A stretch of 64,000 nt of DNA from a bacterium (lineage in GTDB: Bacteria; Patescibacteriota; Saccharimonadia; CAILAD01; JADZBC01). The notes below the pieces were generated by a model. The model did no database searches. It was not told the origin of the DNA and worked only from the letters and a program-made list of their open reading frames with translations. A program made the translations under genes and the position numbers. Below, piece by piece: positions 25,014 to 47,230 of this stretch. The DNA is taken from assembly GCA_020852295.1 (NCBI GenBank), contig JADZBC010000009.1, positions 7,081 to 71,080 on the forward strand, in the 5' to 3' direction. Position 1 is the first letter of the stretch. Each line of letters starts with the position of its first letter.

Positions 25014-25397
25014 TTACTTGAATTGCCCCAGAGTAAAGTTGACGATTGCGTAGGCCAGTATAGCAATAATAAGCCCTATTACCGCGTAGACGATCGTGTC
25101 TTTGGCGCCGGTGGTAGCCTTTTCGTTGCCAGCCGATAATACATATCGCAGAGCGCCAATGATGATCATGATAACCGATGCAACCCCCACTACAATAAGC
25201 AGGGTGTTGGTGATGGTGCGAATACTATCGAGCAAATTACTCGTGGCACCAGTGCCAGCAGCGCAGTCTGCACCACCCTGAATCGTATTGTCAGTGCAGG
25301 CAGCCGACGCTGGACTAGGTAATAAGCCAGGTAACAGCAAAGCTAGCTGGATTGATCCAGCTAGCAGTTGGTTACTTACTTTTTGCTTTGCAGCCAC
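25014..25397 (-). CDS. VirB2/TrbC-like pilin-family protein, paralog 6 of 6.
   Basis: Signal peptide, Cys-containing variable segment, and shared C-terminal module TNTLLIVVGVASVIMIIIGALRYVLSAGNEKATTGAKDTIVYAVIGLIIAILAYAIVNF (TM, short polar loop, TM). Confidence 0.6.
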   Translation of the reverse strand: MAAKQKVSNQLLAGSIQLALLLPGLLPSPASAACTDNTIQGGADCAAGTGATSNLLDSIRTITNTLLIVVGVASVIMIIIGALRYVLSAGNEKATTGAKDTIVYAVIGLIIAILAYAIVNFTLGQFK

Positions 25398-25399
25398 CC

Positions 25400-25816
25400 C
25401 TACACCGCCGGCGTTTGGGTAAACTGCCCAAGGACAAAGTTAACAGCAGCGTAAGCTACGAGACACACGATAATACCGATGATGGCATATACGATAGTGT
25501 CCTTCGCGCCCGTAACGGCCTTTTCGTTACCTTGAGAGAACACATAGCGGAATCCTCCGATGATCAACATCAGAACCGCAACAATACCGACACCCAAAAT
25601 AAGAGTGTTTGTGATTACACGAATATTGAGCAGCAAATCTGTGGATGCACCAGTCGGCTTAATTTTGTTCAGTCCGCCCGGGTCATCTGGATTTAGGGCA
25701 CTTGGTACTGTTACATTTGGTTGCGTCCCGGGGGCGTCAACTGCCAAAGCGCGACTAGCAGCCATCGTGAAGTAGGCTCCGGCAACTGCTGGCACACTTT
25801 TTAATACGTTTCTCAT
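25400..25816 (-). CDS. VirB2/TrbC-like pilin-family protein, paralog 5 of 6.
   Basis: Same C-terminal module (VITNTLILGVGIVAVLMLIIGGFRYVFSQGNEKAVTGAKDTIVYAIIGIIVCLVAYAAVNF). Confidence 0.6.
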   Translation of the reverse strand: MRNVLKSVPAVAGAYFTMAASRALAVDAPGTQPNVTVPSALNPDDPGGLNKIKPTGASTDLLLNIRVITNTLILGVGIVAVLMLIIGGFRYVFSQGNEKAVTGAKDTIVYAIIGIIVCLVAYAAVNFVLGQFTQTPAV

Positions 25817-25899
25817 CTGATAATTTCTCCTTGGTATTGTGATATTAATATAATTCTTGACCTGATTGTAGACTATTTTTTTGAGCGTGACAATTATAT

Positions 25900-26187
25900 C
25901 TAGAGGCGGCCAATGATAAAGGTGACGATGGCATAGCCAAGTACTGCCAACACTACACCGACAACCGCATAGAGGATAGTATCCTTCGCTCGAGCCAGTT
26001 TGTTTTGATCACCCGCCGAGACCACATACATAAGGGCACCTACGATGATCATGATGACCGAGCCACTGCCAATGACAAAGATGATCGTATTAATGATAGT
26101 GGTAGCGAGATTACCTTGGGTCGTGAACGATTTGGCCGCTACGTCGGGTGGTACACTAACCACGATGTCTGAAAATATTTTTCCCAT
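25900..26187 (-). CDS. VirB2/TrbC-like pilin-family protein, paralog 4 of 6 (shortest, 95 aa).
   Basis: Module IINTIIFVIGSGSVIMIIVGALMYVVSAGDQNKLARAKDTILYAVVGVVLAVLGYAIVTF. Confidence 0.6.
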   Translation of the reverse strand: MGKIFSDIVVSVPPDVAAKSFTTQGNLATTIINTIIFVIGSGSVIMIIVGALMYVVSAGDQNKLARAKDTILYAVVGVVLAVLGYAIVTFIIGRL

Positions 26188-26192
26188 CGAAT

Positions 26193-26678
26193 TTAGTTGG
26201 CCTTTCCGATAACAAATGTGACGATAGAGTAGGCGAGAATGGCAACGATAAGACCGACAATCGAGTAAACAATTGCATCCTTGGCGACTCGCGTTCTGTT
26301 GGGATCACCCGCCGAGAACACATACAGCGCCGCGCCTATTAGTACGCCGATGACTGACACAACCCCGACGATCCAGCCAAGGAAGGTTATGACTCTTGAG
26401 ACAAGCTGGTTGACTGTAGAAGGAGTGGCACTACCCCCAAGCGATGAGGGTACCTTGGCGCCCGAGGCATTTGTTGGAGCTGGAGTAGGGGCGGGAGTAC
26501 GAGGAACCCCAACTACACATCTACCGTCTGGCTGAGCAGTCTTTCCGGTGCTTCCGTCGGGCAAGGTGCAAGGCAGGCCAATATCTTCAGGTGGCAATGC
26601 CGCCGATGCCATTCCCACGAAAGACAACGCTAGGCCCAATATGAGTATCGCCGATGTAAATAAATACTTTGGTTTCAC
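26193..26678 (-). CDS. VirB2/TrbC-like pilin-family protein, paralog 3 of 6, with a Pro/Thr-rich variable region.
   Basis: Signal peptide, Cys pair, PTPAPTNAS linker, then module VITFLGWIVGVVSVIGVLIGAALYVFSAGDPNRTRVAKDAIVYSIVGLIVAILAYSIVTF. Confidence 0.6.
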   Translation of the reverse strand: MKPKYLFTSAILILGLALSFVGMASAALPPEDIGLPCTLPDGSTGKTAQPDGRCVVGVPRTPAPTPAPTNASGAKVPSSLGGSATPSTVNQLVSRVITFLGWIVGVVSVIGVLIGAALYVFSAGDPNRTRVAKDAIVYSIVGLIVAILAYSIVTFVIGKAN

Positions 26679-26686
26679 ATCTTTAC

Positions 26687-26950
26687 CTATTTAAACTGCG
26701 TTACTACTACATTAACTATGAGATAGGCAGACATTGCGATTACAAGACCAGCAATAGACCAGGTAATCGCATTTTTCGCTTGGCGCAGCCTATCAGGTTG
26801 ACCAAATGAGGATGCGTACATAATGCCGCCAATAATAAGAAAAATTACCGATAGTACACCCACGAACCAAAAGGCGATAATCATAGCATTTGCAAGTATC
26901 TGCTTCGGCCCATCGAGCGAGAACAGGTCCACACCATTAAAGAGATTCAT
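26687..26950 (-). CDS. VirB2/TrbC-like pilin-family protein, paralog 2 of 6.
   Basis: Module ANAMIIAFWFVGVLSVIFLIIGGIMYASSFGQPDRLRQAKNAITWSIAGLVIAMSAYLIVNV. It overlaps the next gene by 1 nt. Confidence 0.55.
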   Translation of the reverse strand: MNLFNGVDLFSLDGPKQILANAMIIAFWFVGVLSVIFLIIGGIMYASSFGQPDRLRQAKNAITWSIAGLVIAMSAYLIVNVVVTQFK

Positions 26951-27339
26951 TAAAAGTTACCTCCGGCGATTATCAAGTTAAGAATAACCCTCATAGATAC
27001 AAGAACAAACAATCCTGTTATCGAGGTTACTATTCGTTTTTTCGCCGCCTTAATTCCGTCCGGTTGACCCGCAGAAGTAATGAGTTGGATTGAGCTGATA
27101 ATAATAACCAGGACAGCCACCCCGCCGATAAGCCCAGTTACCCAGTTGGCAATCCCGTTAATTAGCATGATTGTTGCGTTTTCGCCGCCCGCACCGCATA
27201 TCGCACTAAGCCCAGGTGTACCTACCGTCACGTTGCCGCATTGTGCCGCATGAGCCGGTGTGCCACTCATAGCAACGAGTAGTGCGCCAATCAGTGTTTG
27301 TAATATTCTACCTTTGAGATTTTCCTGTTGCGCATCCAT
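26950..27339 (-). CDS. VirB2/TrbC-like pilin-family protein, paralog 1 of 6, closest to the divergent VirB6-like operon.
   Basis: Signal peptide ...AMSGTPAHAAQC, Cys pair, then module MLINGIANWVTGLIGGVAVLVIIISSIQLITSAGQPDGIKAAKKRIVTSITGLFVLVSMRVILNL. Confidence 0.55.
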   Translation of the reverse strand: MDAQQENLKGRILQTLIGALLVAMSGTPAHAAQCGNVTVGTPGLSAICGAGGENATIMLINGIANWVTGLIGGVAVLVIIISSIQLITSAGQPDGIKAAKKRIVTSITGLFVLVSMRVILNLIIAGGNF

Positions 27340-31733: not shown

Positions 31734-32573
31734 ATGGGACAATATAAAGTACCACAAAACGTAGAAACCGAAGATAAGATCTTGGGTCCGCTGACGATCA
31801 AGCAGTTCATCTATGTGATCATTGCTCTAGCCTGGGGATTCATCATGTGGCGAATCTTCTCGGCGGCTATACCGATCGCAGTGCTTACCATTTTGCCGGT
31901 TAGTGGAGTGTTTTTAGCGCTCGGTCTCATCCAGCGAGAAGGACAAAGTTTTGAGAACTATTTTGTGGCAATGGTTCGTTACTTTTTCGTGCCGCGCATG
32001 CTGGTTTGGACCAAGGAGCCAGAAATGGTTCAGGCCATCAAGGCGCCAAAGAAGAAGGTCGACACCGGTCCAACTTATCGCCGTAGCCCTGACGAGATAC
32101 GTGGTGCACTCAAAAAACTAGCCACCGTTATCGATACACATGGCCAGTTTCAAAAAGGGGAGACGCTCCAGCTGGCGGATGACCAAAACGAAGCAGCCGA
32201 GATCAGTAAGCGCATCGCCGGGCCACAAAACCAGTCGCTTGAGCAGCATATCAACAACATGGCACAAGCAAGTGACGATATCCTTGATCCGAACAGCGCT
32301 CGCGCCGGCTCGGTCGGCAATTTGCTTCAAAATGTCGAACAAGACGTCCGTGCTCAAGCCAGGGCAACTATGGAAAAAGACCTCCTAAAGTCTGACCGAA
32401 AAACTGCCGACCTCATACCAACGAACGTGCAAGCTACTTCTCACACCCACGCCCAAGATGCTATACTCAAAATGGCTATGCAGAGCGGCGGCATATCTGT
32501 TTCACAGCTCGCCCAGCAAGCCAATCGCCACCTAACCCTTGAGGAGGGTAAGGCGGTCAAGATAGAGCAATAG
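31734..32573 (+). CDS. T4SS VirB3/PrgI-like small membrane protein (two TM helices) with a C-terminal soluble extension.
   Basis: Sits immediately upstream of VirB4. N-terminus ...EDKILGPLTIKQFIYVIIALAWGFIMW... followed by a second TM, the topology typical of VirB3/PrgI. The assignment rests on position and topology, not on a family match. Confidence 0.4.
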   Translation: MGQYKVPQNVETEDKILGPLTIKQFIYVIIALAWGFIMWRIFSAAIPIAVLTILPVSGVFLALGLIQREGQSFENYFVAMVRYFFVPRMLVWTKEPEMVQAIKAPKKKVDTGPTYRRSPDEIRGALKKLATVIDTHGQFQKGETLQLADDQNEAAEISKRIAGPQNQSLEQHINNMAQASDDILDPNSARAGSVGNLLQNVEQDVRAQARATMEKDLLKSDRKTADLIPTNVQATSHTHAQDAILKMAMQSGGISVSQLAQQANRHLTLEEGKAVKIEQ

Positions 32574-32613: not shown

Positions 32614-33531
32614 TTGCAGCCACAGGCCAATGCAAATCAAAATCCAGCTGCACCAGTCGCAGCTAATGCTGATCCTTCGGCAACACCGCCGAAAAAAGCA
32701 AAGGACCTGCGACAAAGTACGCAGAATCACTTACTGTTATCAGAAATACGTGATGGCATAGTGGTGATGCGCGATGGTAGCCTTCGCATGGTTATCATGG
32801 CTTCTGCGCTCAATTTCGACCTCAAAAGTCCCCAAGAACAAGATGCGATCGAAAGCTCGTATCAAGGATTTCTTAACGGTCTTCATTTCCCAATCCAAAT
32901 CCTAGTACGGTCTCGTCGAATGAACCTCGACAACTATCTGGCCGAGCTGGAGAGACTCCAAGGTGAACAAGAAAACCAACTCCTCGCTGGTCTCATGGAA
33001 GACTATATCTACAACATTCGCGGCCTCATTCAGGACATCAACATCATGGATAAGGAGTTTTACATCGTCGTACCTTATTACACGCTAGCGGTCACCAAGG
33101 AAGGTTTGGCCAGCAAGGTTCGTAAGGTATTTGAGGGTAATCGCGAGGTGAGCCAAACTGCTGAGACATTTGAGGCACACAAGCGAGATCTTATACAGCG
33201 CACCAACCTCGTTGCCCAGGGACTTGCACAAATGGGTGTTCGTGCGGCAGTACTGAATACCCAGGAGCTGATTGAGCTCTTTTACTCCGTCTACAACGAA
33301 GACGAATCACAGAGCCAGTCGCTCGTCGAAGTGGATGAACTTACGACCCCTATTGTAGAGCGAGGCAACGCAGCCCCAATGCCGGCCGGCCCGCCGCCGC
33401 CAGCACCGATCGAGCCAGATGACATGTATACTGCAGCTCAGCGTGAGGGTATTGGGGCACAAGCAACGGCTGCGCCACAAGCGGCCGATCCAAATGCCTA
33501 CCAGCAGCCACCACAAGGGGGGCAGCAGTAA
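32614..33531 (+). CDS. VirB4/TrbE-family N-terminal domain encoded as a separate ORF, with Q/P-rich termini.
   Basis: RMVIMASALNFDLKSPQEQDAIESSYQGFLNGLHFPIQILVRSRRMNLDNYL matches the conserved N-terminal region of VirB4/CagE/TrbE. It ends in a TAATG overlap with the next ORF. Confidence 0.6.
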   Translation: MQPQANANQNPAAPVAANADPSATPPKKAKDLRQSTQNHLLLSEIRDGIVVMRDGSLRMVIMASALNFDLKSPQEQDAIESSYQGFLNGLHFPIQILVRSRRMNLDNYLAELERLQGEQENQLLAGLMEDYIYNIRGLIQDINIMDKEFYIVVPYYTLAVTKEGLASKVRKVFEGNREVSQTAETFEAHKRDLIQRTNLVAQGLAQMGVRAAVLNTQELIELFYSVYNEDESQSQSLVEVDELTTPIVERGNAAPMPAGPPPPAPIEPDDMYTAAQREGIGAQATAAPQAADPNAYQQPPQGGQQ

Positions 33532-35426
33532 TGGGTCTCTTTGGCAACAAGCAACCTCAACAGCCCCAAGTCGATCCGCAGGCAGCCGCTCAAGCTGCGC
33601 AAAATGCGCAGGCAGAGGCCGTCTATCGACAAGGTGTGGTGACGCTTCGTGACACCATCGCTCCGTCATCCTTCGAGATAGAAAGTAACTTCATTAAGAT
33701 CGGCAAGCGCTATGCACGAACGCTGTTTGTCTATGGATACCCTCGTACGCTCTTTACTGGCTGGCTCAGCCCGCTCATCAACCTAGACGAGGTTATCGAC
33801 ATCAGTATGTTTATCGAGCCAGTCGAAAGCCGAGTGGTACTCGAAAACCTTCGCAAAAAAGTAGGGCAACTTGAAGCTAGCATCACTATCAACCAAGAAA
33901 AGGGCATGGTGCGTGATCCGGGCCTGGAAGCGGCAGTCCAAGATGCCGAGGAACTCCGTGACGCCCTACAGGTTGGAGAAGAACGCTTCTTCCGCTTTGG
34001 ACTGTACTTCACAATCTACGGCAAAGACCTCGAGGAGCTCGACCTCGTTCAGCGCAAAGTCGAGAGTATGCTTGGTAGTAGCCTGATCTATACCAAACCA
34101 GCCACTATTCAGATGGAGCAAGGCTTCAACTCCTCGGTACCAATTGCGACCGACCTACTTGGCATCAGCCGCAATATGAACACAGGCTCACTCTCAACAA
34201 GCTTTCCTTTTACGACTGCGGAGCTTAGTCAGGATAAGGGAATTATGTATGGCGTTAATCGGCACAATAACAGCCTGGTTATCTTTGACCGGTTTAGCTT
34301 AGAAAACGCCAATATGGCCGTCTTTGCTAAATCTGGTGGTGGTAAGAGTTTTGCGGTCAAGCTTGAATGCCTGCGCTCGCTCATGATGGGTACCGAAATC
34401 ATCATTATCGACCCAGAAAACGAATATAAGACCCTGTGTGACGCAGTCGGGGGTGGCTTTTTACGCCTCTCGCTGGCCAGTGACACCCGCATCAATCCAT
34501 TTGACCTGCCTCAGACAGTAGACCCAGAAGAAGCCGACAATGCGCTTCGAGCCAATATTATTATGCTCACTGGACTCATCCGACTGATGTGTGGCGACCT
34601 TTCGCAAACCGAGCTGGCCGACCTCGATGTGGCGCTCATCAATACTTACGCCGAAAAGGGGATTACCAATGACCCTCTCACGCATACTGCCGTGCCGCCA
34701 ACCATGACCGACCTGTACAACACCCTCATCAGCATGGGCGGGACCGGCCCATCAATTGCTGCTCGTTTGCGCCGCTACGTTGAAGGTACCTTCTCTGGAA
34801 TCTTCTCACAGCAGTCCAATGTCGACCTGAACTCAAAGTTCGTCGTGTTCAATATTCGTGACCTGGAAGACGAAATGCGACCGATCGGCATGTACATCAC
34901 ACTTAACTATATCTGGAATCGCGTGAAGAGCGAGAAGAAAAAGCGCATTCTCGTGGTGGATGAAGCCTGGCAACTTATGCAATATCAAGAATCGGCTCAG
35001 TTTATGTTCTCGATCGCCAAGCGTGCCCGTAAGTATTACCTTGGACTTACTACGATCTCGCAGGACGTCGAGGATTTCTTAAGTACCCGCCTTGGACGTG
35101 CAGTCGTCAGCAACTCATCACTCCAGCTCCTGCTTAAGCAATCACCATCGGCTGTCGATATTGTAGCTGATACCTTCAAATTAACTTCCGAGGAGCGCAA
35201 CCGCCTCACACAGTTCCCAGTCGGTGAAGGGCTATTCTTTGCTGGACTGTCGCACGTGATTCTGCGTATTCTTGCTTCTCCTACAGAAGAACAACTCATC
35301 ACCACCAACCCACAACAATTGCTCGACCGCGAAGCTGCCACACAGGCACAAACCCTGACTGACGAACTAACCGCTGGGCCCGTTGAGCTGGCGCAGCAGA
35401 CAGATGCTGGAGTAGCAAATGGCTAG
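33531..35426 (+). CDS. VirB4/TrbE-family T4SS ATPase, C-terminal ATPase portion.
   Basis: Walker A AVFAKSGGGKSF, Walker B ILVVDEAWQLM, and VirB4-type motifs (IIIDPENEY, RKYYLGLTTISQDVEDF). Confidence 0.85.
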   Translation: MGLFGNKQPQQPQVDPQAAAQAAQNAQAEAVYRQGVVTLRDTIAPSSFEIESNFIKIGKRYARTLFVYGYPRTLFTGWLSPLINLDEVIDISMFIEPVESRVVLENLRKKVGQLEASITINQEKGMVRDPGLEAAVQDAEELRDALQVGEERFFRFGLYFTIYGKDLEELDLVQRKVESMLGSSLIYTKPATIQMEQGFNSSVPIATDLLGISRNMNTGSLSTSFPFTTAELSQDKGIMYGVNRHNNSLVIFDRFSLENANMAVFAKSGGGKSFAVKLECLRSLMMGTEIIIIDPENEYKTLCDAVGGGFLRLSLASDTRINPFDLPQTVDPEEADNALRANIIMLTGLIRLMCGDLSQTELADLDVALINTYAEKGITNDPLTHTAVPPTMTDLYNTLISMGGTGPSIAARLRRYVEGTFSGIFSQQSNVDLNSKFVVFNIRDLEDEMRPIGMYITLNYIWNRVKSEKKKRILVVDEAWQLMQYQESAQFMFSIAKRARKYYLGLTTISQDVEDFLSTRLGRAVVSNSSLQLLLKQSPSAVDIVADTFKLTSEERNRLTQFPVGEGLFFAGLSHVILRILASPTEEQLITTNPQQLLDREAATQAQTLTDELTAGPVELAQQTDAGVANG

Positions 35427-38400
35427 CCCTACGATGCCCAAGCCAACTGGCGGAAATAGGCCCAAACCAAACCCGCGACCCCAAGGTCAAACTGGTGGAA
35501 GCCAAAGTAGCGGATTTCGGCCAATGCAGAGTGAGCGTATGGGCCCGACAAAAAATGCCGCCAGGCAAGCCGGTGCACCGGTAGTAGACAAGGATCTAAA
35601 GGAGGGACTCCATGCCGAAACAAGGGCTGAGCGAGCTCAAGCTCGACAGGACCTTACAAAACGCGTTGAGCATGCTCGAGGTGGTGCTGCGGGTAAAGTA
35701 GCAGCAGCTAGGCAGGGTGGCACAAAAGAGGCTGCCGTTGAAGCTGGCAGGCAGGCGGCCGTAAAGGGATTTGAGAAGGGCGCCCAGTACGCGGCCGACG
35801 CCGCAACTGGTGGCGCAGCCGAAGCTGTAAGGCCAGTAATCAAGGCGGCCGCTAAGGCACTGGAATGGCTTTCGCGCAACAAGCGCTGGCTCAAGATCGG
35901 TGCGGTCCTGATATCGCCACTCATTTTCGTATTTCTATTAATCATATGGATTATTAGCGACCCTTTTGGATCAATTTCAAAAATTGGCTACACCGCGTTT
36001 AATGCCTTCAAAACTGCAGCTGGAGCAGCAATATCTGGTGCAGGATTTAGTGCCGAACTGACCATCAATGACCTCAATGAACAAATGAAGTCAGTGGCAG
36101 CAACCAATAGTGCAGGAATTATGCCGGAAGAGGGTACGATAGCATACAAACTCCTACAGATAGACGCAGAAAAAATTCAGACTAGCTCATACAATCCTGG
36201 AATACCCTTTAAGATTGAAACCAAAAAAATCAATGGTCCTGACGGAAGGTCGTATACCGTCATGGATAAGGTCGTAAATACAAACAGCGGATCGTCGATT
36301 AGCATTAAAGACGCCGCTAGCCCGACAGGCCCAATCGGCCAGAAAAACATTGTGGCCGCAGTATTGTCTCAGAAAATCCCAATCATGCAGTTTATGATCC
36401 GCCAGCCAGCGACGAGAAAATTAAACAAAGCACCAGACCTTGGGCTTGCGCTAAACTATGGCGAGAACAAAGATAATCAAAATGCAAATCTTAATCGGCC
36501 ATACGAAGAGCTTCAAAAGTTCCTAAAGGAAAAAACGTATAAACGCGTGCGTGGCTCCAGCATTACTCTGCCGACAGTAGGTGTTGTAGGTTCAGATGAG
36601 TCAAAATTAGTCACTCAAAAAATCGTCGATTCGATTAAAAAGGTTCAAGATGACATCGTAAAGGATTACGAGCCTTCGAAACTACAAATAGAGCTGCCAT
36701 ATGATCAATTTGGTCAAGAGCGCTTATCGCCAAAGCGAATAAGCAATACATTGTGTGCGTTCCAGGAAATTCTGCTGGATCCAAAGAATATTGCTAGTGC
36801 AGTAGAGAGTCGAGCAAATGCTGCTAGGCGTGATGGTGCAAAATTTATGACACTGAAAGACACTCATAATAAGGCAGCACTAGACACTAATGAGCTGAAG
36901 TTTAGTATTCAACAGATGGCTGACTACACAAAAAGTATGTCCTACCAGAGAATTGTATATGGCCGACTTTCGGGCGAGGCAGTTGATCCTGATGGGATTG
37001 GTCAGGCTGCTATGTCTATCACGCGAGAAAAGTATGACGCTAGCGCACAAACAATACTCCAAAATATGTCTGACACCTGCGGAACATTGCGCTACCTCGA
37101 CCAGCGAAGGGCCGATGAGGCTGCGGACGCGAGTGTCTGGTCGGATGAAAGTCCTAACAACTTTATCCGTACATACTATCGGGAAATCCGCACCGCAAAT
37201 GTTACTGTGCAGGATATACAGAGCTATTATGTTGAATATAGAGACAGTCCAACCTGCGATCCCCTGCGACCAAATAGTGACAGTAGTGATAAGGTTCGTT
37301 GTGCTGTTTATTCCTTTAGAATCGCAATCCTACGAAACTACTTCAACAAATTTCAGCAAGAGATATATCGTGGAAGCCAAAAATACTACACTAGCCCCGA
37401 GAAGGTAACACCCGAAGACATTACTACTCGACTTATTAAGATTGGCGCTGGGGTATCTACTACCGGCCTCGAGGATGGCAATCAAAATTTTTCACGAGCT
37501 ATACAGGGATTAAACCAGTTAAACTACGACTACAGTATGGTATACGGTGGTAGATTTTTGACAGATGCAGAAAATGACCAGAATGCAAAAGAGCTTGCCG
37601 AATTACGTGACTGGCAAACCAAAAACTACGGCATAGCATACCGGGTCTTTAATACCGATAATGTCAGTTCTATAGCTAGCCGGTTGATGCAGCACACCCC
37701 ACCTGAACCAAAACGCGCAATAGCCTGGATGTTCGGAAGTATATTGAAAGCGATAATTAACCCCATACGTACTTTTGCCACGATAGATGGTGCTGCCAAC
37801 TATGTGCTCAAAGGGGAACAAAATATTGCGATGGCCGCAGACCAAGCGGTTTACAATGATGCCCGATACAATAAAGCCAGTCCTGTCGGCTTCACTAAGC
37901 AGGAAACCTCAATCGACTGGAAAAACAATGCAAAGTTTATTGAGGCACTGAAGAAAAATAAAACGCAAGTAGTTGATCCTGACCCACTCGTAAATGGCGC
38001 AAAGGTTGACGCCAATACACTCTTTAGTAAATGGGACAACTGTTTCACCTCGAAGATTACATCGGAAATATATTTTGACGACAATTACCTAGCGGCGCTA
38101 AATTTTGGTGCCAATCTTCCCGAGATTCCTCAGCAAGAGAGAGATGAGTTTAAGCGTAAGTATGAACTCTTTAGTGGCTGTAAACCACTGCTGAGTAGTG
38201 CATCAAATAATATTAACTCGCTCCAAGTACAGTATCGCGTTTACCGTTTTCGATCTCTAGTATTGGACAGCCTAGTAACCCTGAGTAACGACGAGGAAGA
38301 TAAAAATCTCGACGCAAATGGCGACCAGGGTGCGACGCCCTCAACAAGCGCCGGGCCAGGGGGTCCAAGTGGTGTTAATGGACTTCAGAGCCCACCAAAC

Positions 38401-38904
38401 CTAGGAGCAGCAGATAGTCAGGGCTATTATCGTTTACCTCCATCCGCTGATGGCTCATACAGAACATATAGTACGCCTGGTGAGCAATGTGGTAGCCTTG
38501 CACTCATCCAAACACTCTATACAGTCTCGCAGGCCTGGAAGGCAAGATTTGGAGGCAATCTCTACATCGGAGACCTCAACGCCTCCGGCCACAAAAGTCA
38601 CCGCAACGGCGTAGATGTTGACCTTATTGCAATAGCGGGTGACGGCAGCCGGGCAGCCGACTACTCTCGCGGTGGTTATTCTAGAGATAAGACGATCGAA
38701 CTAGGAAAGATGTTCGTAGATACTGGTATCGTCACGGATATCGGATACCAAGATGGGCAGGCAGGGTCGGCTATTGATGCTTACTATAGGGAGAAGGGAC
38801 AGGGTAGTAGTGTGGTAAGGCCTTGGTCAGGGCACGATGACCACTTCCATGTGCGAATAAAGGATGAATTTAGAGGACCAAGGAGTGAGCGCTGTGCAAA
38901 CTAA
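35419..38904 (+). CDS. Giant membrane-anchored protein with a C-terminal LAS-type zinc peptidase domain similar to penicillin-insensitive murein endopeptidase MepA.
   Basis: 1161 aa. Basic disordered N-terminus, one TM (KIGAVLISPLIFVFLLIIWIISDPF), a long extracellular region, and a C-terminal NASGHKSHRNGVDVDL ... SGHDDHFHVRI (H..D ... HxH metal ligands as in MepA HQTGLDVDI / DDHFHVR). ATG overlaps the VirB4 stop (ATGGCTAG). Confidence 0.7.
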   Translation: MASPTMPKPTGGNRPKPNPRPQGQTGGSQSSGFRPMQSERMGPTKNAARQAGAPVVDKDLKEGLHAETRAERAQARQDLTKRVEHARGGAAGKVAAARQGGTKEAAVEAGRQAAVKGFEKGAQYAADAATGGAAEAVRPVIKAAAKALEWLSRNKRWLKIGAVLISPLIFVFLLIIWIISDPFGSISKIGYTAFNAFKTAAGAAISGAGFSAELTINDLNEQMKSVAATNSAGIMPEEGTIAYKLLQIDAEKIQTSSYNPGIPFKIETKKINGPDGRSYTVMDKVVNTNSGSSISIKDAASPTGPIGQKNIVAAVLSQKIPIMQFMIRQPATRKLNKAPDLGLALNYGENKDNQNANLNRPYEELQKFLKEKTYKRVRGSSITLPTVGVVGSDESKLVTQKIVDSIKKVQDDIVKDYEPSKLQIELPYDQFGQERLSPKRISNTLCAFQEILLDPKNIASAVESRANAARRDGAKFMTLKDTHNKAALDTNELKFSIQQMADYTKSMSYQRIVYGRLSGEAVDPDGIGQAAMSITREKYDASAQTILQNMSDTCGTLRYLDQRRADEAADASVWSDESPNNFIRTYYREIRTANVTVQDIQSYYVEYRDSPTCDPLRPNSDSSDKVRCAVYSFRIAILRNYFNKFQQEIYRGSQKYYTSPEKVTPEDITTRLIKIGAGVSTTGLEDGNQNFSRAIQGLNQLNYDYSMVYGGRFLTDAENDQNAKELAELRDWQTKNYGIAYRVFNTDNVSSIASRLMQHTPPEPKRAIAWMFGSILKAIINPIRTFATIDGAANYVLKGEQNIAMAADQAVYNDARYNKASPVGFTKQETSIDWKNNAKFIEALKKNKTQVVDPDPLVNGAKVDANTLFSKWDNCFTSKITSEIYFDDNYLAALNFGANLPEIPQQERDEFKRKYELFSGCKPLLSSASNNINSLQVQYRVYRFRSLVLDSLVTLSNDEEDKNLDANGDQGATPSTSAGPGGPSGVNGLQSPPNLGAADSQGYYRLPPSADGSYRTYSTPGEQCGSLALIQTLYTVSQAWKARFGGNLYIGDLNASGHKSHRNGVDVDLIAIAGDGSRAADYSRGGYSRDKTIELGKMFVDTGIVTDIGYQDGQAGSAIDAYYREKGQGSSVVRPWSGHDDHFHVRIKDEFRGPRSERCAN

Positions 38905-40906
38905 AAGTAAACTATTTTCTACCGCCAGTATTGCTGTTTTCATAATTTCTTTACTCCTGCAGCCCCTAAACACACTCGCCGCAAGTCCAGAACAGCGCAT
39001 TAATATCGAGCGTCGGCCCTGGTTTGACCCTACAGACATCGCCTGCACAAATACAACCGCTCCAGGCACAAACCAGTCTACAGTACAGCCGGGTCCAATA
39101 TATATCGTCGGCGACTCAGTGATGGATGGTGCAAAATCTAAGGTCGAGCCAACTATTACAGCAGCGGGTTGGCAGCCTAAATTCAACACTCTTGTATCGA
39201 GAAAGCTTAGCGGAACACCACCAAATCCTGATGGTTTTGGCGCTATTGCGCTTGATGGTGATTTTATAAAAACTGCAAAAGCTGTTGTGATCGAGCTTGG
39301 CACTAACCCTTCATCGGAATTCAGTAAAAAAGTACCTGAGTTTGTACAAGCAATAAAACAGCTAAATTCAGCCGTAACTATCTACTGGATTGATACGGCG
39401 AGCCCCGGTAGATCGGATTTTCAAAACCACATCAAAAACGCCAATACCGCTATCTATAACAACTCGACATCTTCGGGTTATAAAGTAATATCTTGGTTTA
39501 AGAAAGTGTTTGGAGATTCTTCTGATCCTCTCAACCCATCATCCACCGCACCAGACACCGGTAAGCTTATTTCGACAGCCGATGGGCTCAACGTTCACCC
39601 TACTGACGCAGGGAAGCAAGCAATGGCTGATATTGTGTTGCAGAATATCGGAGGACAAACTCCGGCACAAGCCGCCATTGCAATGAACACTCGAACCAAG
39701 GCGATTATCGACAGTCAGCTAAAAATACTAGCTGCTGACACCGGTCAGGCCAACACAGCACCAATTGCAGTCCCAGAACCATACGCCTCAATTTTCCCAA
39801 AGGCCGCTGCTCGACACGGCACAGACCCGATATTTCTCGCTACAATTTTTCTCGCTGAGCACGGCGGAGGATTCCCTAATCCGCCACCGCCATACGGTAC
39901 AGGTGGCCGCTGGGCAACGTCAAACAAGGGTGCTAATGGTCCATTTCAGTTTCTCGTGAGTACTTGGGCGGGTAAAAAACAAGATGCCGACAGAATGACT
40001 GTCAAGAAATTCAACTCGAACGAAACAATCGAGGTTGGTGGAGATGGTACAACAGACATTCAGGATCTAGCCGACGCCGCCTTTGGTGCAGCGCAATACC
40101 TTGCCGAGGCAGGTGGAAAAGTGGGGACCCCACTTGGTGATACCGTTAACCCTATGGCCGAGAACACACTTACCTCCGCTATGGTTGCATACAATGCAGG
40201 TGGTGGAAATCTTAACAAATGGAGGAGATGCGGAACCTCGCTGTCCTGTATCGGTGCAGCCGAGACTAGGAAATATGTAACAAATGGAGTGAACTACTAC
40301 CAGCGTCTTGGTGGACAGCTAAACGTTGATCCGGGTGCCACCACTACAAATCAAACCTGTAGCGATGGCTCGAGCACAACTCCTGGCGGCGGGCTCGGTG
40401 TATCTGCTGATGGCTTTGTATTTCCATTGAAAACCACTAAAGCAGTTATCCGGCAAGGAGCAGATGGCGCCGTATGGTGTATACAGGCCCAGAATAATTG
40501 CCACCATGATTACAATGCGGCGGACATTCATGCGCCAACCGGAACGATTGTAGTTGCTGCGAGAGGTGGGACTGTCTTAAGTACGAGAACTGAGGTTAAT
40601 TATGAAAACGGCAATACGCTCCGCATACAGGGTGATGATGGACTTTGGTATTATTACGCACATATGGGGGATGGGACACTGAAGGTGAAAAAGGGCGATA
40701 AGGTGACTGCAGGCCAAGAACTAGGAGCAGTAGGAACTTCAGCAGATGCTCAGGGAACGGCACCACACCTACACTTCGATATTGCAGACCACGAAAATGG
40801 CTTCTCCCGAGGACGTGGCGGTGCATGCGGATTCGAGTGCCAAAACTACCTCATCAATCCACAGCCTGTATTAATTGCAGCATTTGCTAAGTTACCGGAG
40901 AACTAG
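38894..40906 (+). CDS. Secreted tri-domain peptidoglycan hydrolase: SGNH/GDSL esterase, lytic transglycosylase (SLT) and M23 (LytM) endopeptidase.
   Basis: Signal peptide; IYIVGDSVMDG (GDS motif block I); SLT motifs AEHGGG...GANGPFQF...AYNAGGGN; M23 motifs HHDYNAADIHAPTGT...HLHFD. Start set to GTG 38894, which lies 8 nt after AGGAG. The track ATG at 38864 lies inside the upstream gene. Confidence 0.75.
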   Translation: MQTKSKLFSTASIAVFIISLLLQPLNTLAASPEQRINIERRPWFDPTDIACTNTTAPGTNQSTVQPGPIYIVGDSVMDGAKSKVEPTITAAGWQPKFNTLVSRKLSGTPPNPDGFGAIALDGDFIKTAKAVVIELGTNPSSEFSKKVPEFVQAIKQLNSAVTIYWIDTASPGRSDFQNHIKNANTAIYNNSTSSGYKVISWFKKVFGDSSDPLNPSSTAPDTGKLISTADGLNVHPTDAGKQAMADIVLQNIGGQTPAQAAIAMNTRTKAIIDSQLKILAADTGQANTAPIAVPEPYASIFPKAAARHGTDPIFLATIFLAEHGGGFPNPPPPYGTGGRWATSNKGANGPFQFLVSTWAGKKQDADRMTVKKFNSNETIEVGGDGTTDIQDLADAAFGAAQYLAEAGGKVGTPLGDTVNPMAENTLTSAMVAYNAGGGNLNKWRRCGTSLSCIGAAETRKYVTNGVNYYQRLGGQLNVDPGATTTNQTCSDGSSTTPGGGLGVSADGFVFPLKTTKAVIRQGADGAVWCIQAQNNCHHDYNAADIHAPTGTIVVAARGGTVLSTRTEVNYENGNTLRIQGDDGLWYYYAHMGDGTLKVKKGDKVTAGQELGAVGTSADAQGTAPHLHFDIADHENGFSRGRGGACGFECQNYLINPQPVLIAAFAKLPEN

Positions 40907-40907
40907 T

Positions 40908-42188
40908 ATGAACCAACAACAAGAACGCAGGAAGCTAATCATTTATACCGTCCTTACAGTCGCTGCGATCCTCGCGATTTACTGGATTATCCAATTTCTT
41001 ACAACTGGTGAACTTAAAGTCACAACAAGCAATAAATCAGCGGAAATAAACATCATTGACCCCGCCACCGGCAAAGTAAGTCAATTTGTGGGCAAAGGCA
41101 GCGGGAGTATCCGCCTCAAGCCTGGTACCTATACAGTTGAGGCAAAACTAGATGACCGGATAACGCGAACTGGATTCGAAATAGTGACATCTAAGACAAC
41201 AAGTAAGAATTTACAGATTACAGACATTAAGTCTCCTAATCAGTTTTTGTACTACTCAGCAAGTCATCTTCATGCTAAAGATAACATACTCTATTTTAGA
41301 AACGATTCTACCAGGGAGTTTAATAAATTCAACTCTTCTGAATCAGAGCCAACCGTAGTCGAGGAGAGTTTACCAGAGATAAGCACAATCCACTGGGCTA
41401 CTGGGGGCAACCTCGCGCTGCTTGAGACATCAGATAATATTTTTTATTACTTCGAGGATGGAAAAATCCGAGTAGTAGATATAAGTGCACCTAATGGCTT
41501 GCTCTATCCGGACAGCAGCAAACCAGACGAAGCCGAAGAAAGTGACGTTAATAGCCAGATTCTACATGCACAGGTGAATGAACTTGGGGCATTTGCCTTC
41601 ATTGAAGAAGGAAAAGTTTTTTACAAACCAAGCCTGGCGGAGAAGGCTAAGCTTGTTACGAATAGGCAGCTACTGAGCGATTCTATACTCGAACTTTCTA
41701 ACAAAGGGTTAATAGCTTTAGTAACATACGAATCACTGGGGCAGGAAAATATCACTTCTAAGGACATCTCAAAGCGAGCAATAGAAATATACAATTCTAA
41801 GAACAACGAAAAAACAACCTTGTCGACAAAGGAAATTCCTGGATTTATGAGTTGGTCACCTGGCGGCGATAAGTTGGTCTATTCAGACGGACAAAACATC
41901 ATGCTTTACAACGATAACGATAAGTCAACCAAAATTGCCTTAGGTAATCGTGGGGAGCTCTCTACATTCATAAGTTGGATCAACGATGATACTATGATTT
42001 TTCCAGACAAAACTAGCCTATGGAAGTACGAGGTTGCTAGCAACACAACAACTAAGATAGCAAATATCCCTGCCGGTATGCTTGTTCAATCTCTCGGTGT
42101 CGATAGCAACGAAAAAACAGTTTTTCTTAGCACTAAGCCAAACTCTCGGTTCGACGCCTTCGGCAATGTCTACCGACTCGATCTCTAG
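40908..42188 (+). CDS. Membrane-anchored beta-propeller-like protein (TolB/WD40-like repeats). It is AT-rich.
   Basis: N-terminal TM (LIIYTVLTVAAILAIYWIIQF) and repeated motifs IHWATGGNLALLETSDN, WSPGGDKLVYSDGQNIMLYN, TFISWINDDTMIF typical of propeller blades. ATG 40908 chosen 1 nt after the upstream stop. Confidence 0.5.
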   Translation: MNQQQERRKLIIYTVLTVAAILAIYWIIQFLTTGELKVTTSNKSAEINIIDPATGKVSQFVGKGSGSIRLKPGTYTVEAKLDDRITRTGFEIVTSKTTSKNLQITDIKSPNQFLYYSASHLHAKDNILYFRNDSTREFNKFNSSESEPTVVEESLPEISTIHWATGGNLALLETSDNIFYYFEDGKIRVVDISAPNGLLYPDSSKPDEAEESDVNSQILHAQVNELGAFAFIEEGKVFYKPSLAEKAKLVTNRQLLSDSILELSNKGLIALVTYESLGQENITSKDISKRAIEIYNSKNNEKTTLSTKEIPGFMSWSPGGDKLVYSDGQNIMLYNDNDKSTKIALGNRGELSTFISWINDDTMIFPDKTSLWKYEVASNTTTKIANIPAGMLVQSLGVDSNEKTVFLSTKPNSRFDAFGNVYRLDL

Positions 42189-42457
42189 CGCACACTCACG
42201 GCGATAAAGCGTACACCTTCGACACCGCGTTTTGTAATCTCTTTAAGGATATCCTGCGCGGCATGCCGCAGTTCACTCGCAGCCGCGGCGTCCTCGGTCG
42301 CAATCTTAATGACCCCATTCTTGTAGCTAACTACTCGTACCTCAATGCGAAGCATATCAACAATCGCAAGTTTTACCTCGGTCATGACGTCAAGCTTCTG
42401 CATGCCAAGACTATCGGCACGCCGACTCAGTATGTCCTTGATGTCATCCATGGCCAA
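42185..42457 (-). CDS. DUF721-like small protein, as in the conserved recF-associated position.
   Basis: 90 aa, located immediately downstream of recF with a 14-nt overlap, matching the common dnaA-dnaN-recF-DUF721 arrangement. Confidence 0.55.
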   Translation of the reverse strand: MAMDDIKDILSRRADSLGMQKLDVMTEVKLAIVDMLRIEVRVVSYKNGVIKIATEDAAAASELRHAAQDILKEITKRGVEGVRFIAVSVR

Positions 42458-43517
42458 CCCCGCTCAAATCGATCACCTGAATATCCATATTGCTCATCCC
42501 ATCAAGCTCGGTTGCAGTGATGAATGTTTGTTGTTGCCCAACGATAGCTATGAGATGCTGTCGGCGGCGCTCATCGAGCTCGCTAAATACATCATCCAGA
42601 AGAAGGGTAGGGCGCTGTAAAGTCTTCGCCTGCATATATTCAATCTCAGAGAGCTTCATTGCCAAAATAAGCGTTCTCATTTCGCCGCGTGACACGATTT
42701 CGACAACCGGCCGATTGTCGCGCAGAATACTAAAATCATCACGATGTGGTCCCAAAGTACTAAAACCGGCCGCCACGTCGCGTACATGGGCCCTGCGCAG
42801 CTCTGAGAGGTATTCATTGTCCATGCTTACACTCGGCCGATACTCCAAAACAAACTCATGGGTAAGGTTTGCGATGCGACCATACTCGCCATTGAGCTGG
42901 TCGGCCATAGTCTTAAGGAAGTCAGCTCGAGTAACCATAAGGTGTTGTGCTGGTTCAGCCAGCTGCACATCAAAAACAAAAAGCTGATCTGACAGACTCG
43001 CATCGTCTGCTCGACCATATTTTTTAGCTTGATGGAGGAGACTGTTGCGCTGCTTAAGTATGCGCCGATAGAGCGATAACTGCTTCATATAGGCGCGATC
43101 GACTTGCGATAATATCGTATCCAAATAGCGTCGGCGCTGACTTGGCCCATCATAGAGAAGCGACAGATCCCTGGGCTCAAAAAGAACTACCGGATGACGG
43201 CCAACTAAGTATGAAAGAGGTTTTTTAACATCACCCAGTAGAGCTGTCTTGTGGTGACTGTCGCCAGTAACAACATACCGAACCTCTGTCATTTCATCTT
43301 CATGCTGACAGCGAACCTTATAAAAATCAGCCTCAAAATTTACGAGTTCGGGATCGTGCGCTCGAAATGACTTTGTCGTAGCGCTTACATAGATCGATTC
43401 GAGTAGGTTAGTCTTGCCGACGGCATTTGGGCCAATAATCGCGACGATAGAGGATGTAAAATCAATACCAAAATCTTTGTAGGATCGAAAGTTGGTTAGC
43501 GCCAGATGCTTGATCAT
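42444..43517 (-). CDS. recF: DNA replication and repair protein RecF.
   Basis: Walker A GPNAVGKTNLLESI, SMC-like signature and Walker B LLLDDVFSELD. Confidence 0.9.
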   Translation of the reverse strand: MIKHLALTNFRSYKDFGIDFTSSIVAIIGPNAVGKTNLLESIYVSATTKSFRAHDPELVNFEADFYKVRCQHEDEMTEVRYVVTGDSHHKTALLGDVKKPLSYLVGRHPVVLFEPRDLSLLYDGPSQRRRYLDTILSQVDRAYMKQLSLYRRILKQRNSLLHQAKKYGRADDASLSDQLFVFDVQLAEPAQHLMVTRADFLKTMADQLNGEYGRIANLTHEFVLEYRPSVSMDNEYLSELRRAHVRDVAAGFSTLGPHRDDFSILRDNRPVVEIVSRGEMRTLILAMKLSEIEYMQAKTLQRPTLLLDDVFSELDERRRQHLIAIVGQQQTFITATELDGMSNMDIQVIDLSGVGHG

Positions 43518-43523
43518 ACATGC

Positions 43524-44630: not shown

Positions 44631-44928
44631 ATTTATCCCCTCAAGCTATTGCTTATTATAAGTTAATTAATAAATAGTAGTGATAGTAATAGTGTCTGTG
44701 GATAGCTTGGAAAAGTCGAAAAAACACTATGTTTATCGTTTGTTTTTGTTTTCTACACTGTGTACAAGCACTGCATACGAATATGTGTGTAAATGTATAA
44801 CTTGTGCATGTTTTGTGTTTTCATAATCTAGTGAGTCTGTCAATTGTGTTTATCTAGTGGAAAAACACACGGTTTTAAACAACTATTACACAACTTATCC
44901 ACCACTTAACCACAGGGCCTGTGTATAA
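44631..44928. promoter_or_regulatory. AT-rich dnaA-dnaN intergenic region with DnaA-box-like 9-mers, a candidate oriC half.
   Basis: TGTGGATAG at 44697-44705 and TTATCCACC at 44895-44903, plus AT-rich tracts. Confidence 0.45.
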
Positions 44929-46314: not shown

Positions 46315-46439
46315 AACTACCTCACCCCCTGTGAATATATCTCTATACTAGCGATTTTGTGAGTTTTCCACAACTGTAAAAGACCACAAAAGTAATCCAC
46401 AGAAATTGTGGGTTATGTGGAAAACTTTATAATGGCTCA
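46315..46439. promoter_or_regulatory. Region upstream of dnaA with a cluster of DnaA boxes, a candidate oriC with dnaA autoregulation.
   Basis: TTTTCCACA at 46365-46373, TAATCCACA at 46393-46401, TGTGGGTTA at 46407-46415, TGTGGAAAA at 46417-46425, in alternating orientation. Confidence 0.5.
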
Positions 46440-46468
46440 TTGACGTTTAAGGTGATTTAGGCTAAAAT
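46440..46468 (+). promoter_or_regulatory. Sigma-70-like promoter for the rpmH-rnpA operon.
   Basis: TTGACG, 17 nt, then TAAAAT, ending 12 nt before the rpmH ATG. Confidence 0.45.
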
Positions 46469-46479
46469 ATTACGGAATT

Positions 46480-47227: not shown

Positions 47228-47230
47228 TTT

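Follow-up and report, generated by a model that had tools for sequence, protein, structure and literature searches.

The gene directly downstream of virB4 in the 64,000-nt stretch of DNA analysed here (the window) probably encodes a membrane-anchored peptidoglycan peptidase of the T4SS of Saccharimonadia (Patescibacteria). Judged from its sequence, the protein ends in a LAS metallopeptidase resembling MepA, in which every ligand is intact and which is predicted to be active. Because this LAS-peptidase gene lies inside a T4SS operon, T4SS-linked wall cutting is the best reading of its role. A preliminary description of the same DNA had proposed a VirB8/VirB10-position scaffold that doubles as a wall cutter; the wall cutting survives the present analysis, while the VirB8/VirB10 position does not.

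Table 1. Features of the T4SS locus and of the 1161-aa protein, in window positions.
Feature	Positions	Strand	Basis
Six VirB2-like T4SS pilin genes, array	25014..27339	-	Pfam PF18895 T4SS_pilin matches in 6/6, 5/6 above cut-off
PrgI (VirB3-like)	31734-32573	+	Pfam PrgI 52.5 bits
TrsD-like protein resembling the VirB4 N-terminal part	32614-33531	+	NCBIfam TrsD E 3.8e-6; weak VirB4 N-terminal matches
VirB4-type T4SS ATPase, upstream neighbour	33531..35426	+	NCBIfam conju_CD1110 372.5 bits vs cut-off 325; Pfam P-loop_TraG, AAA_10, DUF87
Whole gene, T4SS-associated membrane-anchored protein with C-terminal LAS peptidase	35419..38904	+	1161 aa; ORF list
Residues 1-155, predicted cytoplasmic low-complexity Ala/Gly/Arg/Lys/Pro-rich N-terminus	35419..35883	+	composition, pLDDT
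Residues 156-180, single TM helix	35884..35958	+	sole Kyte-Doolittle window >1.4 in protein
Residues 181-960, conserved ~780-aa, almost all-helical ectodomain (scaffold)	35959..38298	+	AF2 model, homolog conservation
Residues 961-1010, Gly/Pro/Ser-rich flexible linker	38299..38448	+	composition, pLDDT, similarity boundary
Residues 1011-1150, compact LAS zinc peptidase domain, nearest Peptidase_M74 / MepA	38449..38868	+	
Residues 1057-1068, motif GHKSHRNGVDVD	38587..38622	+	HMMER alignment to 1tzp_A positions 88-103 (NGGHASHQTGLDVDIF)
Residues 1138-1144, motif GHDDHFH	38830..38850	+	HMMER alignment to 1tzp_A positions 180-196 (KVRPWFQHRAHMHVRLR)
Second wall hydrolase, 680 aa, GDSL/SGNH-like + SLT-like + M23, N-terminal signal or anchor	38864..40906	+	Pfam Peptidase_M23 70.5 bits

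The locus is a monoderm-type (Gram-positive-like) T4SS adjoining recF-dnaN-dnaA, a T4SS type that does without VirB7/9/10 (PMC12102498). As first described, the gene sits inside the T4SS operon, with PrgI, the TrsD-like protein and VirB4 upstream and the SLT+M23 hydrolase downstream. The VirB4 of the window is 65-83% identical to proteins of Candidatus Saccharimonadia MAGs, and one related locus (L001) has the same gene order, PrgI / TraC-like / VirB4 / peptidase-gene homolog, the gene syntenic to our TrsD-like protein carrying Pfam TraC-like. Just upstream of the T4SS row, and divergently oriented, lies the pilin array, of a kind described for Saccharimonadia (PMC12102498). In the 680-aa hydrolase the DUF459/GDSL and SLT matches stay under their cut-offs, and an HLHFD motif is found at residue 635. 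The window also holds two FemAB genes, which suggests bridged cross-links in the wall of the cell itself, and such cross-links would not be a substrate for an enzyme of strict MepA (D-Ala-mDAP) type.

The reading frame of the preliminary description was exact in position, strand and length, and a 98%-identical copy of equal length exists (P0001). The ATG and the stop codon of virB4 overlap, and a GGAG lies 7 nt 5' of the ATG. The single TM and the Arg/Gly/Ala-rich cytoplasmic N-terminus reported earlier also agree with our analysis: residues 1-155 consist of A21/G12/R9/K8/P7 %, and the AF2 model has pLDDT <50 across most of residues 1-137, a disordered N-terminus. A short motif common to homologs, ATGVGAPVA.AAGK, immediately precedes the TM helix, and the homologs have one such helix at the equivalent place, at about 120-200. 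Since the basic SRNKRWLK flanks the helix on its N side, the positive-inside rule would put the N-terminus in the cytoplasm and the peptidase outside. Beyond the helix the extracytoplasmic stretch is indeed long, but it measures about 830 aa between TM helix and peptidase instead of the roughly 900 aa first given. Most of it is the scaffold, two thirds of the whole protein, modelled with pLDDT mostly 70-90 as helices throughout apart from one small sheet at 264-295. Among 27 homologs its most conserved core lies at ~680-810 (G.E.G.QNFNR ... GGRF ... GIAYRLF..N.RS), and four cysteines are conserved (446, 554, 875 and 921), which together with the conserved pair C1024 + C1159 of the peptidase domain fit an extracytoplasmic location. 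Comparison of the scaffold with PDB structures gave no credible match, and Pfam, PHROGs and PADLOC searches gave none for it either; a phage or defence origin was rejected, PHROGs and PADLOC being without matches. The low G+C of the scaffold (0.44 vs 0.52 upstream) is uninformative about a recent transfer because the whole 36-48 kb, dnaA included, is similarly low. The linker region (residues 961-1020: G17 P13 S13 %; pLDDT <50 at 966-983) marks a boundary of similarity: a homolog of 44% identity overall (P0002) resembles our protein up to the linker and then has VanY where M74 stands here.

For the C-terminal domain, the profile search proposed with the preliminary description returned Pfam PF03411 Peptidase_M74 at 35.4 bits (gathering cut-off 25; E 1.1e-8), and both motifs, found where they had been placed, align to 1tzp. 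Specifically, in the HMMER alignment H1061 and D1068 fall on MepA zinc ligands 1 and 2 and H1058 on the conserved His before them (1tzp_A positions 94, 101 and 91), while H1144 falls on the third zinc ligand and H1142 on the catalytic His of H-x-H, with H1139 conserved too (positions 192, 190 and 187). In the numbering of Marcyjaniak et al. 2004 (+19), the six residues are, we presume, H110/H113/D120 and H206/H209/H211 of MepA. None of the LAS zinc ligands (H-x6-D, H-x-H) is therefore missing, nor is any of the further His residues conserved in MepA. G-H-x-S-H-x-x-G-x-x-x-D and H-x-x-H-F-H are both invariant in a nine-sequence alignment of close homologues; among the M74-type representatives scanned, most have the full first pattern and nearly all have H-x-x-H-x-H. 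The domain has the LAS fold, nearer to MepA than to other LAS families. Its profile coverage is partial (positions 33-92 and ~181-196, the H-x-H region), its identity to MepA is 25%, and the NCBIfam MepA equivalog NF006947 gives 32.8 bits, short of the 272-bit cut-off. Pfam-M74 proteins of ~240 aa match the C-terminal 168 aa with 45% identity (E 2e-30). We read the domain as belonging to an M74-like subfamily that is compact and divergent, and not as an ortholog of MepA. Because it is only ~140 aa long (MepA ~230-240) and is aligned to the profile in part, the bond specificity of MepA should not be transferred to it.

To place the protein in its family, Saccharimonadia loci were collected with VirB4 as the probe, and the downstream gene was judged where complete. 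(Homolog searches with the full protein and with a 27-sequence profile returned P0001 and P0002 alone, the low-complexity N-terminus probably swamping the candidates, and a genome search with the homolog alignment A1 had no matches.) The complete gene 3' of virB4 nearly always encodes a protein of 0.9-1.6 kaa with a TM helix at about 120-200, and a scaffold HMM matches 60/78 long representatives. The window protein fits this family in every respect: size, one TM helix, helical scaffold, C-terminal peptidase, and a position directly 3' of virB4. What varies is the C-terminal module. By local HMMs it is VanY at 20 loci, M74 at 4 (plus the window) and M23 at 3; by Pfam, 12/27 scaffold homologs carry VanY, 6/27 M74 and 5/27 M23, while 4/27 have no recognisable C-terminal peptidase, as is also the case for L010, L021 and L080. 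In the scaffold tree, M74 carriers appear in at least six places, each beside VanY carriers, and the VanY- and M23-type relatives mostly retain their own catalytic motifs; the M74 module itself is most closely related to standalone proteins of 241-243 aa. The pattern indicates that the peptidase module has been exchanged repeatedly between homologs, at the linker, and it seems that any wall peptidase may serve on the scaffold. A ~330-aa insertion in P0017/L026 was considered as an RlpA-like domain, and Pfam was without a match there. The ectodomain is 23-35% identical where VirB4 is 75-83% identical, and 44% where VirB4 is 91%. We rejected the idea that such fast divergence is peculiar to the 1161-aa protein, as other extracytoplasmic proteins of the T4SS locus diverge comparably (PrgI ~45%, 680-aa hydrolase ~30%).

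A simple model for the function would be as follows. The basic, disordered N-terminus would remain in the cytoplasm while the one helix serves as membrane anchor beside a VirB3/VirB4/VirB6-like translocon, and the ~780-residue helical ectodomain, as a module specific to the T4SS, would sit within the zone of the wall. From there the flexible Gly/Pro/Ser linker would tether the zinc-dependent LAS peptidase of MepA (M74) type, which may locally hydrolyse peptide stems or cross-links of the peptidoglycan and, together with the SLT+M23 hydrolase of the next gene, open the wall for passage of the T4SS and its pilus.

The wall that is opened need not be the producer's own. The tethered peptidase could instead attack the peptidoglycan of a host bacterium at the epibiont-host contact and so give the T4SS or pilus access to the host membrane; it would perhaps be freed by linker cleavage, and the VanY/M74/M23 exchange would then perhaps track the host's peptidoglycan chemotype. 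That the T4SS is essential for epibiotic growth and is not used for conjugation, and that the S. epibionticum system lacks a recognisable relaxase and coupling protein (PMC10633639; PMC12102498), speaks for such a role, as do the repeated module exchange, the very fast divergence of the ectodomain relative to VirB4, and the FemAB genes with their hint of a bridged own wall that is no classic MepA substrate. However, PrgI and the 680-aa hydrolase diverge fast too, so that the extracytoplasmic T4SS proteins of the locus share this rate as a group; with its N-terminus inside, the protein is fixed in the producer's membrane and has no known release site; an immunity-like partner was not identified; and 25% identity to MepA is too low to infer specificity. 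On balance we find a host-directed action possible but doubtful. Its more elaborate form, in which the helical ectodomain presents an exchangeable peptidase cartridge (VanY, M74, M23, perhaps NlpC/P60) to host peptidoglycan, we offer tentatively and consider rather unlikely. A different emphasis would make the protein mainly a structural T4SS subunit, whose helical ectodomain is the essential part (e.g., as a wall-spanning stalk or assembly platform) and whose peptidase is a peptidoglycan-binding or regulatory module. The scaffold is conserved family-wide, some members are without a recognisable C-terminal peptidase, and the LytM and CHAP domains of PrgK have been reported as peptidoglycan-binding or regulatory modules, its LytM being degenerate (PMC11323569), so that looking like a hydrolase is no proof of enzymatic activity for a domain in a T4SS protein. 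In the window protein, however, all metal ligands and the catalytic His are kept, as they are in close M74 homologues, with the motifs recurring in most M74-type representatives, and in VanY- and M23-type relatives the respective motifs are mostly preserved. That one intact peptidase has repeatedly replaced another speaks for selection acting on catalysis, and leaves the structural alternative improbable.

The VirB8- or VirB10-like channel scaffold with a peptidase as an add-on is very improbable. It would account for a bitopic membrane protein with a large extracytoplasmic part in a T4SS operon, and a clear VirB8 homolog has not been identified in most Saccharimonadia (PMC12102498), but the ectodomain shows no similarity to VirB8 or VirB10 and in the AF2 model is almost all alpha-helical, with neither an NTF2-like alpha+beta domain nor a proline-rich region with a beta-barrel, and monoderm T4SSs lack VirB10 (PMC12102498). 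The slot after virB4 and the topology match PrgK-type anchored hydrolases instead (PMC11323569). Homology to MepA, a general murein endopeptidase (PMC6403190), might also point to housekeeping remodelling of the wall in growth or division, as in E. coli, with an incidental T4SS neighbourhood. This we think hardly credible, given the translational coupling to virB4, a position after virB4 that is invariant across dozens of Saccharimonadia genomes, standalone M74 relatives that likewise lie in T4SS loci, and examined genomic contexts of the fused scaffold that are all T4SS loci.

Before the T4SS of Patescibacteria, none had been reported as essential to the survival of its own carrier bacterium. 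Of the components of this system, the one encoded after virB4 is among the largest and most conserved in place, and although its S. epibionticum counterpart, SEML1_0007, is essential, it has hitherto been a supplementary-table entry only. What is added here is that the C-terminal module is, by sequence, an intact MepA-like zinc peptidase, that one scaffold bears VanY, M74 or M23 modules exchanged many times, and that other Patescibacteria have the M74 module as a separate gene in the same locus. Taken together, these observations argue that peptide-stem cleavage of peptidoglycan may be an integral activity of the Patescibacteria T4SS. Residues H1061, D1068, H1142 and H1144 can be mutated to tell an own-wall from a host-wall target. 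If the host-wall cartridge proved true, cartridge swaps and fast scaffold divergence would record adaptation to host wall chemistries, and the gene would be a determinant and readable marker of Saccharimonadia host range.

Among known enzymes, one close relation is E. coli MepA (Peptidase M74; PDB 1tzp/1u10), which depends on zinc and cuts D-Ala-meso-DAP cross-links (PMC6403190). Both ligand motifs are common to it and the window domain, but MepA serves a diderm as a housekeeping enzyme, a single domain of ~230 aa free in the periplasm, whereas the window domain is about 140 aa long, has no counterpart of the middle third of the M74 profile and is tethered to a monoderm-type T4SS protein. Closer in sequence are secreted M74 proteins of ~240 aa that stand alone in other Patescibacteria (P0003-P0010), with 39-45% identity to the C-terminal domain, the same motifs and a conserved terminal Cys; these are unfused and have their own N-terminal hydrophobic leader. 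In the two cases looked up (L083, L084) the standalone gene is the third after virB4, separated from it by genes for 478- and 187-aa proteins, and lies beside dnaN-dnaA.

On pCF10, prgK presumably lies directly after the virB4 homolog prgJ. PrgK and other Gram-positive T4SS hydrolases combine a cytoplasmic N-terminal domain, a TM helix and an extracellular hydrolase, and the TM-anchored ones are thought to lesion the thick wall locally (PMC11323569); the window protein is likewise encoded in a T4SS operon, with a predicted N-in topology, one TM helix and the hydrolase outside. The differences are in the parts. Those hydrolases use SLT/muramidase, CHAP, NlpC/P60 or a degenerate LytM, inactive and regulatory in PrgK (PMC11323569), a list from which LAS M74/VanY peptidases are absent, and PrgK-type hydrolases have no ~780-aa helical scaffold; conversely, Pfam and NCBIfam found no VirB1/TrsG/CD419-type SLT, CHAP or NlpC/P60 domain in the window protein. 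By analogy, it would work like the anchored wall hydrolases of monoderm T4SSs (PrgK/TraG/CwlT; VirB1 analogs), a likeness of class and not of homology because no sequence similarity to PrgK-type hydrolases is detectable in it by Pfam and NCBIfam.

Another close parallel is SEML1_0007 of Candidatus Southlakia epibionticum ML1, 1113 aa, directly downstream of virB4 SEML1_0008 (PMC10633639 Tables S1/S2), with a Hedgehog/DD-peptidase domain at 951-1105 (PMC10633639 Table S2) and a Tn-seq score of GD/ES/ES; it is rated as essential for epibiotic growth (PMC10633639, Wang et al. 2023, Cell). As in the window, its T4SS row lies beside dnaA-dnaN-recF, its size is near that of our protein (1113 vs 1161 aa), both have a C-terminal LAS fold, and a multi-domain wall hydrolase gene follows, although that partner has two lysozyme-like domains and a Cys protease instead of GDSL-like + SLT + M23. 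Its module is probably of VanY type rather than M74, since its best structural neighbours are annotated 'Peptidase M15B' and 'Peptidase M23'. We regard the window protein as the positional counterpart of SEML1_0007, the two being linked by synteny, size and the published fold assignment. The protein is no isolated oddity: its family is conserved throughout Saccharimonadia, and a counterpart, SEML1_0007, was already catalogued.

The open reading frame at 35419..38904 (+ strand, 1161 aa) in the ORF list has exactly the coordinates given in the preliminary description. The start codon (ATG) and the stop codon of the gene before it overlap (ATGGCTAG), and GGAG stands 7 nt upstream of the start. 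By hydropathy the protein has one hydrophobic segment, residues 156-180, preceded by a stretch (residues 1-155) composed of 21% Ala, 12% Gly, 9% Arg, 8% Lys and 7% Pro. Because the basic flank SRNKRWLK lies on the N side of this TM helix, the positive-inside rule predicts that the N-terminus is in the cytoplasm and the rest of the protein extracytoplasmic. In the full-length model (27 homologs as input; pLDDT 72.8, pTM 0.67) the N-terminal part is disordered and then forms low-confidence helices ahead of the TM helix. The ectodomain (181-960) is nearly all helical, with one small sheet (264-295) and pLDDT mostly 70-90, and a disordered Gly/Pro/Ser linker (~961-1010) leads from this scaffold to the C-terminal LAS domain.

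The sole meaningful Pfam match in the protein is Peptidase_M74 (PF03411), whose score of 35.4 bits exceeds the gathering cut-off of 25. Against the NCBIfam MepA equivalog the score is low (32.8 bits, cut-off 272), and the domain is therefore not a MepA ortholog. Its motifs fall at residues 1057-1068 (GHKSHRNGVDVD) and 1138-1144 (GHDDHFH). When compared with PDB sequences by HMMER, ASGHKSHRNGVDVDLI pairs with NGGHASHQTGLDVDIF (positions 88-103 of E. coli MepA, 1tzp_A) and VVRPWSGHDDHFHVRIK pairs with KVRPWFQHRAHMHVRLR (positions 180-196). With a 19-residue offset for the mature chain, we take the aligned MepA residues to be H110/H113/D120 and H206/H209/H211 in the numbering of Marcyjaniak et al. 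2004. The C-terminal 168 residues were modelled confidently by AlphaFold2 from nine homologs (pLDDT 87.2, pTM 0.87). In the PDB this model is closest to the MepA chains (Foldseek E 5.6e-7, probability 1.0, query TM-score 0.65), with Hedgehog N-terminal domains ranking after them. The MepA-like LAS domain proposed in the preliminary description is thus borne out, both by the LAS-fold match in the PDB and by zinc ligands that align with those of MepA. The domain is compact, at ~140 residues and with the middle third of the M74 profile absent, compared with ~230 residues for MepA (PMC6403190). The two are 25% identical, so the substrate specificity of MepA is not transferable to the domain studied here. 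Residues C1024 and C1159 of the domain are likely to form a disulfide.

The gene directly follows that of the VirB4 ATPase in a row of T4SS genes (see the table). VirB4 appears to be split into two ORFs, a TrsD-like one and the ATPase; base 33531 is common to both, as the last of the former and the first of the latter. The polytopic protein that opens the row may be a VirB6 analog in extended form; Ala is abundant in its very long C-terminal half, which also bears Pro-rich repeats (PPPGGAPPPPPP). The studied gene shares its last 41 nt with the 680-aa wall hydrolase gene, which occupies a slot where an M23-containing gene is often found in related loci. The product of the hydrolase gene is secreted or anchored and brings together a GDSL/SGNH-like region that may be an O-acetyl esterase, an SLT-like region and an M23 peptidase carrying an HLHFD motif. 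The six VirB2-like pilins are divergent in sequence from one another, and arrays of this type have been reported to be characteristic of Saccharimonadia and essential to Southlakia epibionticum. The recF-dnaN-dnaA neighbourhood is typical of a replication origin, and the cumulative GC-skew minimum falls near 42-44 kb, which puts the T4SS row right beside the origin, an arrangement also reported for some Patescibacteria. The window has the layout published for Patescibacteria, in which a monoderm-type T4SS that includes TrsD, PrgI and pilin arrays lies near dnaA (PMC12102498). A wall-cutting enzyme within a T4SS is supported by homology; the further suggestion of a scaffold in the VirB8/VirB10 position finds no support in the fold, the system type or the gene order.

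Features of the T4SS region and related genes in the window, with the slot after virB4 in two other patescibacterial loci (L083, L084)
Feature	Position	Strand	Remarks
FemAB-family genes, two adjacent	6896-7939 and 7936-8898	-	
Six VirB2-like pilin genes	25014-27339	-	Tandem, divergently upstream of T4SS row; Pfam T4SS_pilin 6/6, above cut-off 5/6
Polytopic protein, 1432 aa	27430-31728	+	First gene of T4SS row; weak conjugal-transfer match (NCBIfam MMCAP2_0566, E 0.002)
PrgI/VirB3	31734-32573	+	T4SS row
TrsD-like protein, 305 aa	32614-33531	+	Resembles N-terminal part of VirB4
VirB4 ATPase, 631 aa	33531-35426	+	CD1110 family, above cut-off
Studied gene	35419-38904	+	Directly after VirB4 in T4SS row
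Wall hydrolase, 680 aa	38864-40906	+	M23 above cut-off; GDSL-like and SLT below cut-offs
437-aa protein	40875-42188	+	No matches
recF, dnaN, dnaA	42444-46314	-	After T4SS row
rnpA, yidC, mnmE	After dnaA, to 49876	+	Typical replication-origin neighbourhood, 42444-49876
VanW + PG_binding_4 protein, 600 aa	49883-51685	-	Another wall-associated protein near origin region
Slot after virB4, other Patescibacteria	L083 3938-7323; L084 3938-7340		478-488-aa protein with CLIPPER-domain match, ~190 aa, standalone M74, ~200 aa, then dnaN

A genome scan with VirB4 as probe returned 80 loci. Nearly all loci at 65-83% identity belong to MAGs of Candidatus Saccharibacteria or Saccharimonadia; the loci near 49% are from Levybacteria. 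In the Saccharimonadia loci the gene directly after virB4 usually encodes 0.9-1.6 kaa, with the first hydrophobic segment most often at ~120-200, and local HMMs assign its peptidase module to VanY in 20 loci, to M74 in four (plus the window) and to M23 in three. Exhaustive searching with HMMER yielded 295 representatives (E <= 1e-3); roughly 30 of them match the scaffold strongly, and more than 100 match only the M74 module. Of the 78 representatives with a length of 850 aa or more, the scaffold HMM matches 60, including many proteins of 0.9-1.3 kaa with a single TM helix and M74 at the C-terminus. Pfam recognises VanY in 12, M74 in six and M23 in five of 27 scaffold homologs. The exchange is seen at close range in the closest non-identical relative (P0002; 44% identical, upstream VirB4 91% identical), which past the linker carries VanY in place of M74. 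In a neighbour-joining tree of the scaffold region, computed without support values and used qualitatively, M74 carriers occupy at least six positions, each adjoining VanY carriers. In one Saccharimonadia locus (L005, VirB4 82% identical) virB4 is followed by the gene of a 1026-aa protein (10496-13576). The C-terminus of this protein matches NlpC/P60 weakly, below threshold, and might represent a fourth cartridge type; BLAST finds no similarity between this protein and that of the window.

For VirB4 identities of 75-83%, PrgI is ~45%, the scaffold 23-35% and the 680-aa hydrolase ~30% identical; by this sequence measure, the extracytoplasmic parts of the T4SS all diverge fast relative to VirB4. 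Longer family members (1476-1591 aa; L026 11923-16353, L022 11572-16347 and L043 11969-16726) carry large scaffold insertions. The L026 protein, P0017, has an insertion of ~330 aa after the equivalent of residue ~380, in which Pfam recognised nothing; our guess would be an RlpA-like domain.

Standalone proteins of 241-243 aa are the closest relatives of the M74 module (45% identical). The two that were looked up (L083, L084) both lie in T4SS loci, in the order PrgI, TraC-like, VirB4, 478 aa, 187 aa, M74, 197 aa, dnaN, dnaA; this arrangement may represent the same functional set in unfused form.

The scheme that follows is built on what was observed of the architecture, the fold, the intact catalytic residues, the position in the operon, the conservation and the module exchange. 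The protein would be anchored beside the translocon, where its tethered zinc peptidase would hydrolyse peptide stems or cross-links of the peptidoglycan locally, and cooperation with the SLT+M23 hydrolase of the next gene would allow channel and pilus to pass the wall. Since three unrelated or distantly related peptidase folds interchange on one scaffold, and since elsewhere the same locus encodes the M74 module separately, we argue from these comparisons that catalysis on wall peptides is probably the trait on which selection acts. As to whose wall is cut, the two FemAB-family genes suggest an interpeptide bridge (bridged cross-links) in the organism's own peptidoglycan, and the pair bears on whether a MepA-like enzyme would cut that wall. 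An apparently bridged own wall, together with the epibiotic lifestyle, leaves some room for a host-directed wall-cutting role, which we consider unlikely.

Within the collection of papers searched, none describes the scaffold, its M74 variant or the exchange of modules. The M74-type cartridge, repeated cartridge exchange and a large helical scaffold without structural relative appear not to have been described before; they are directly testable and relevant to specialists on Patescibacteria and T4SSs, rather than a first-order surprise. In S. epibionticum ML1 the T4SS comprises SEML1_0006-0019, adjoined by dnaA-dnaN-recF, and the VirB4 homolog is SEML1_0008 (PMC10633639). The gene next to it is SEML1_0007 (3342 nt), with a Hedgehog/DD-peptidase domain assigned to 951-1105 of its product, 'Peptidase M15B' and 'Peptidase M23' proteins as the best structural neighbours and a Tn-seq score of GD/ES/ES; SEML1_0006 has two lysozyme-like domains and a Cys protease (PMC10633639). 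In position and architecture, the studied gene is therefore the counterpart of SEML1_0007, a catalogued, uncharacterised and essential gene. The closest functional analogy is with PrgK of pCF10 and its relatives, in which a TM helix links a cytoplasmic N-terminal part to extracellular hydrolase domains; these proteins are needed for transfer (PMC11323569). The protein belongs to the Saccharimonadia family encoded by the gene after virB4 and, functionally, takes its place among the anchored wall hydrolases of T4SSs.
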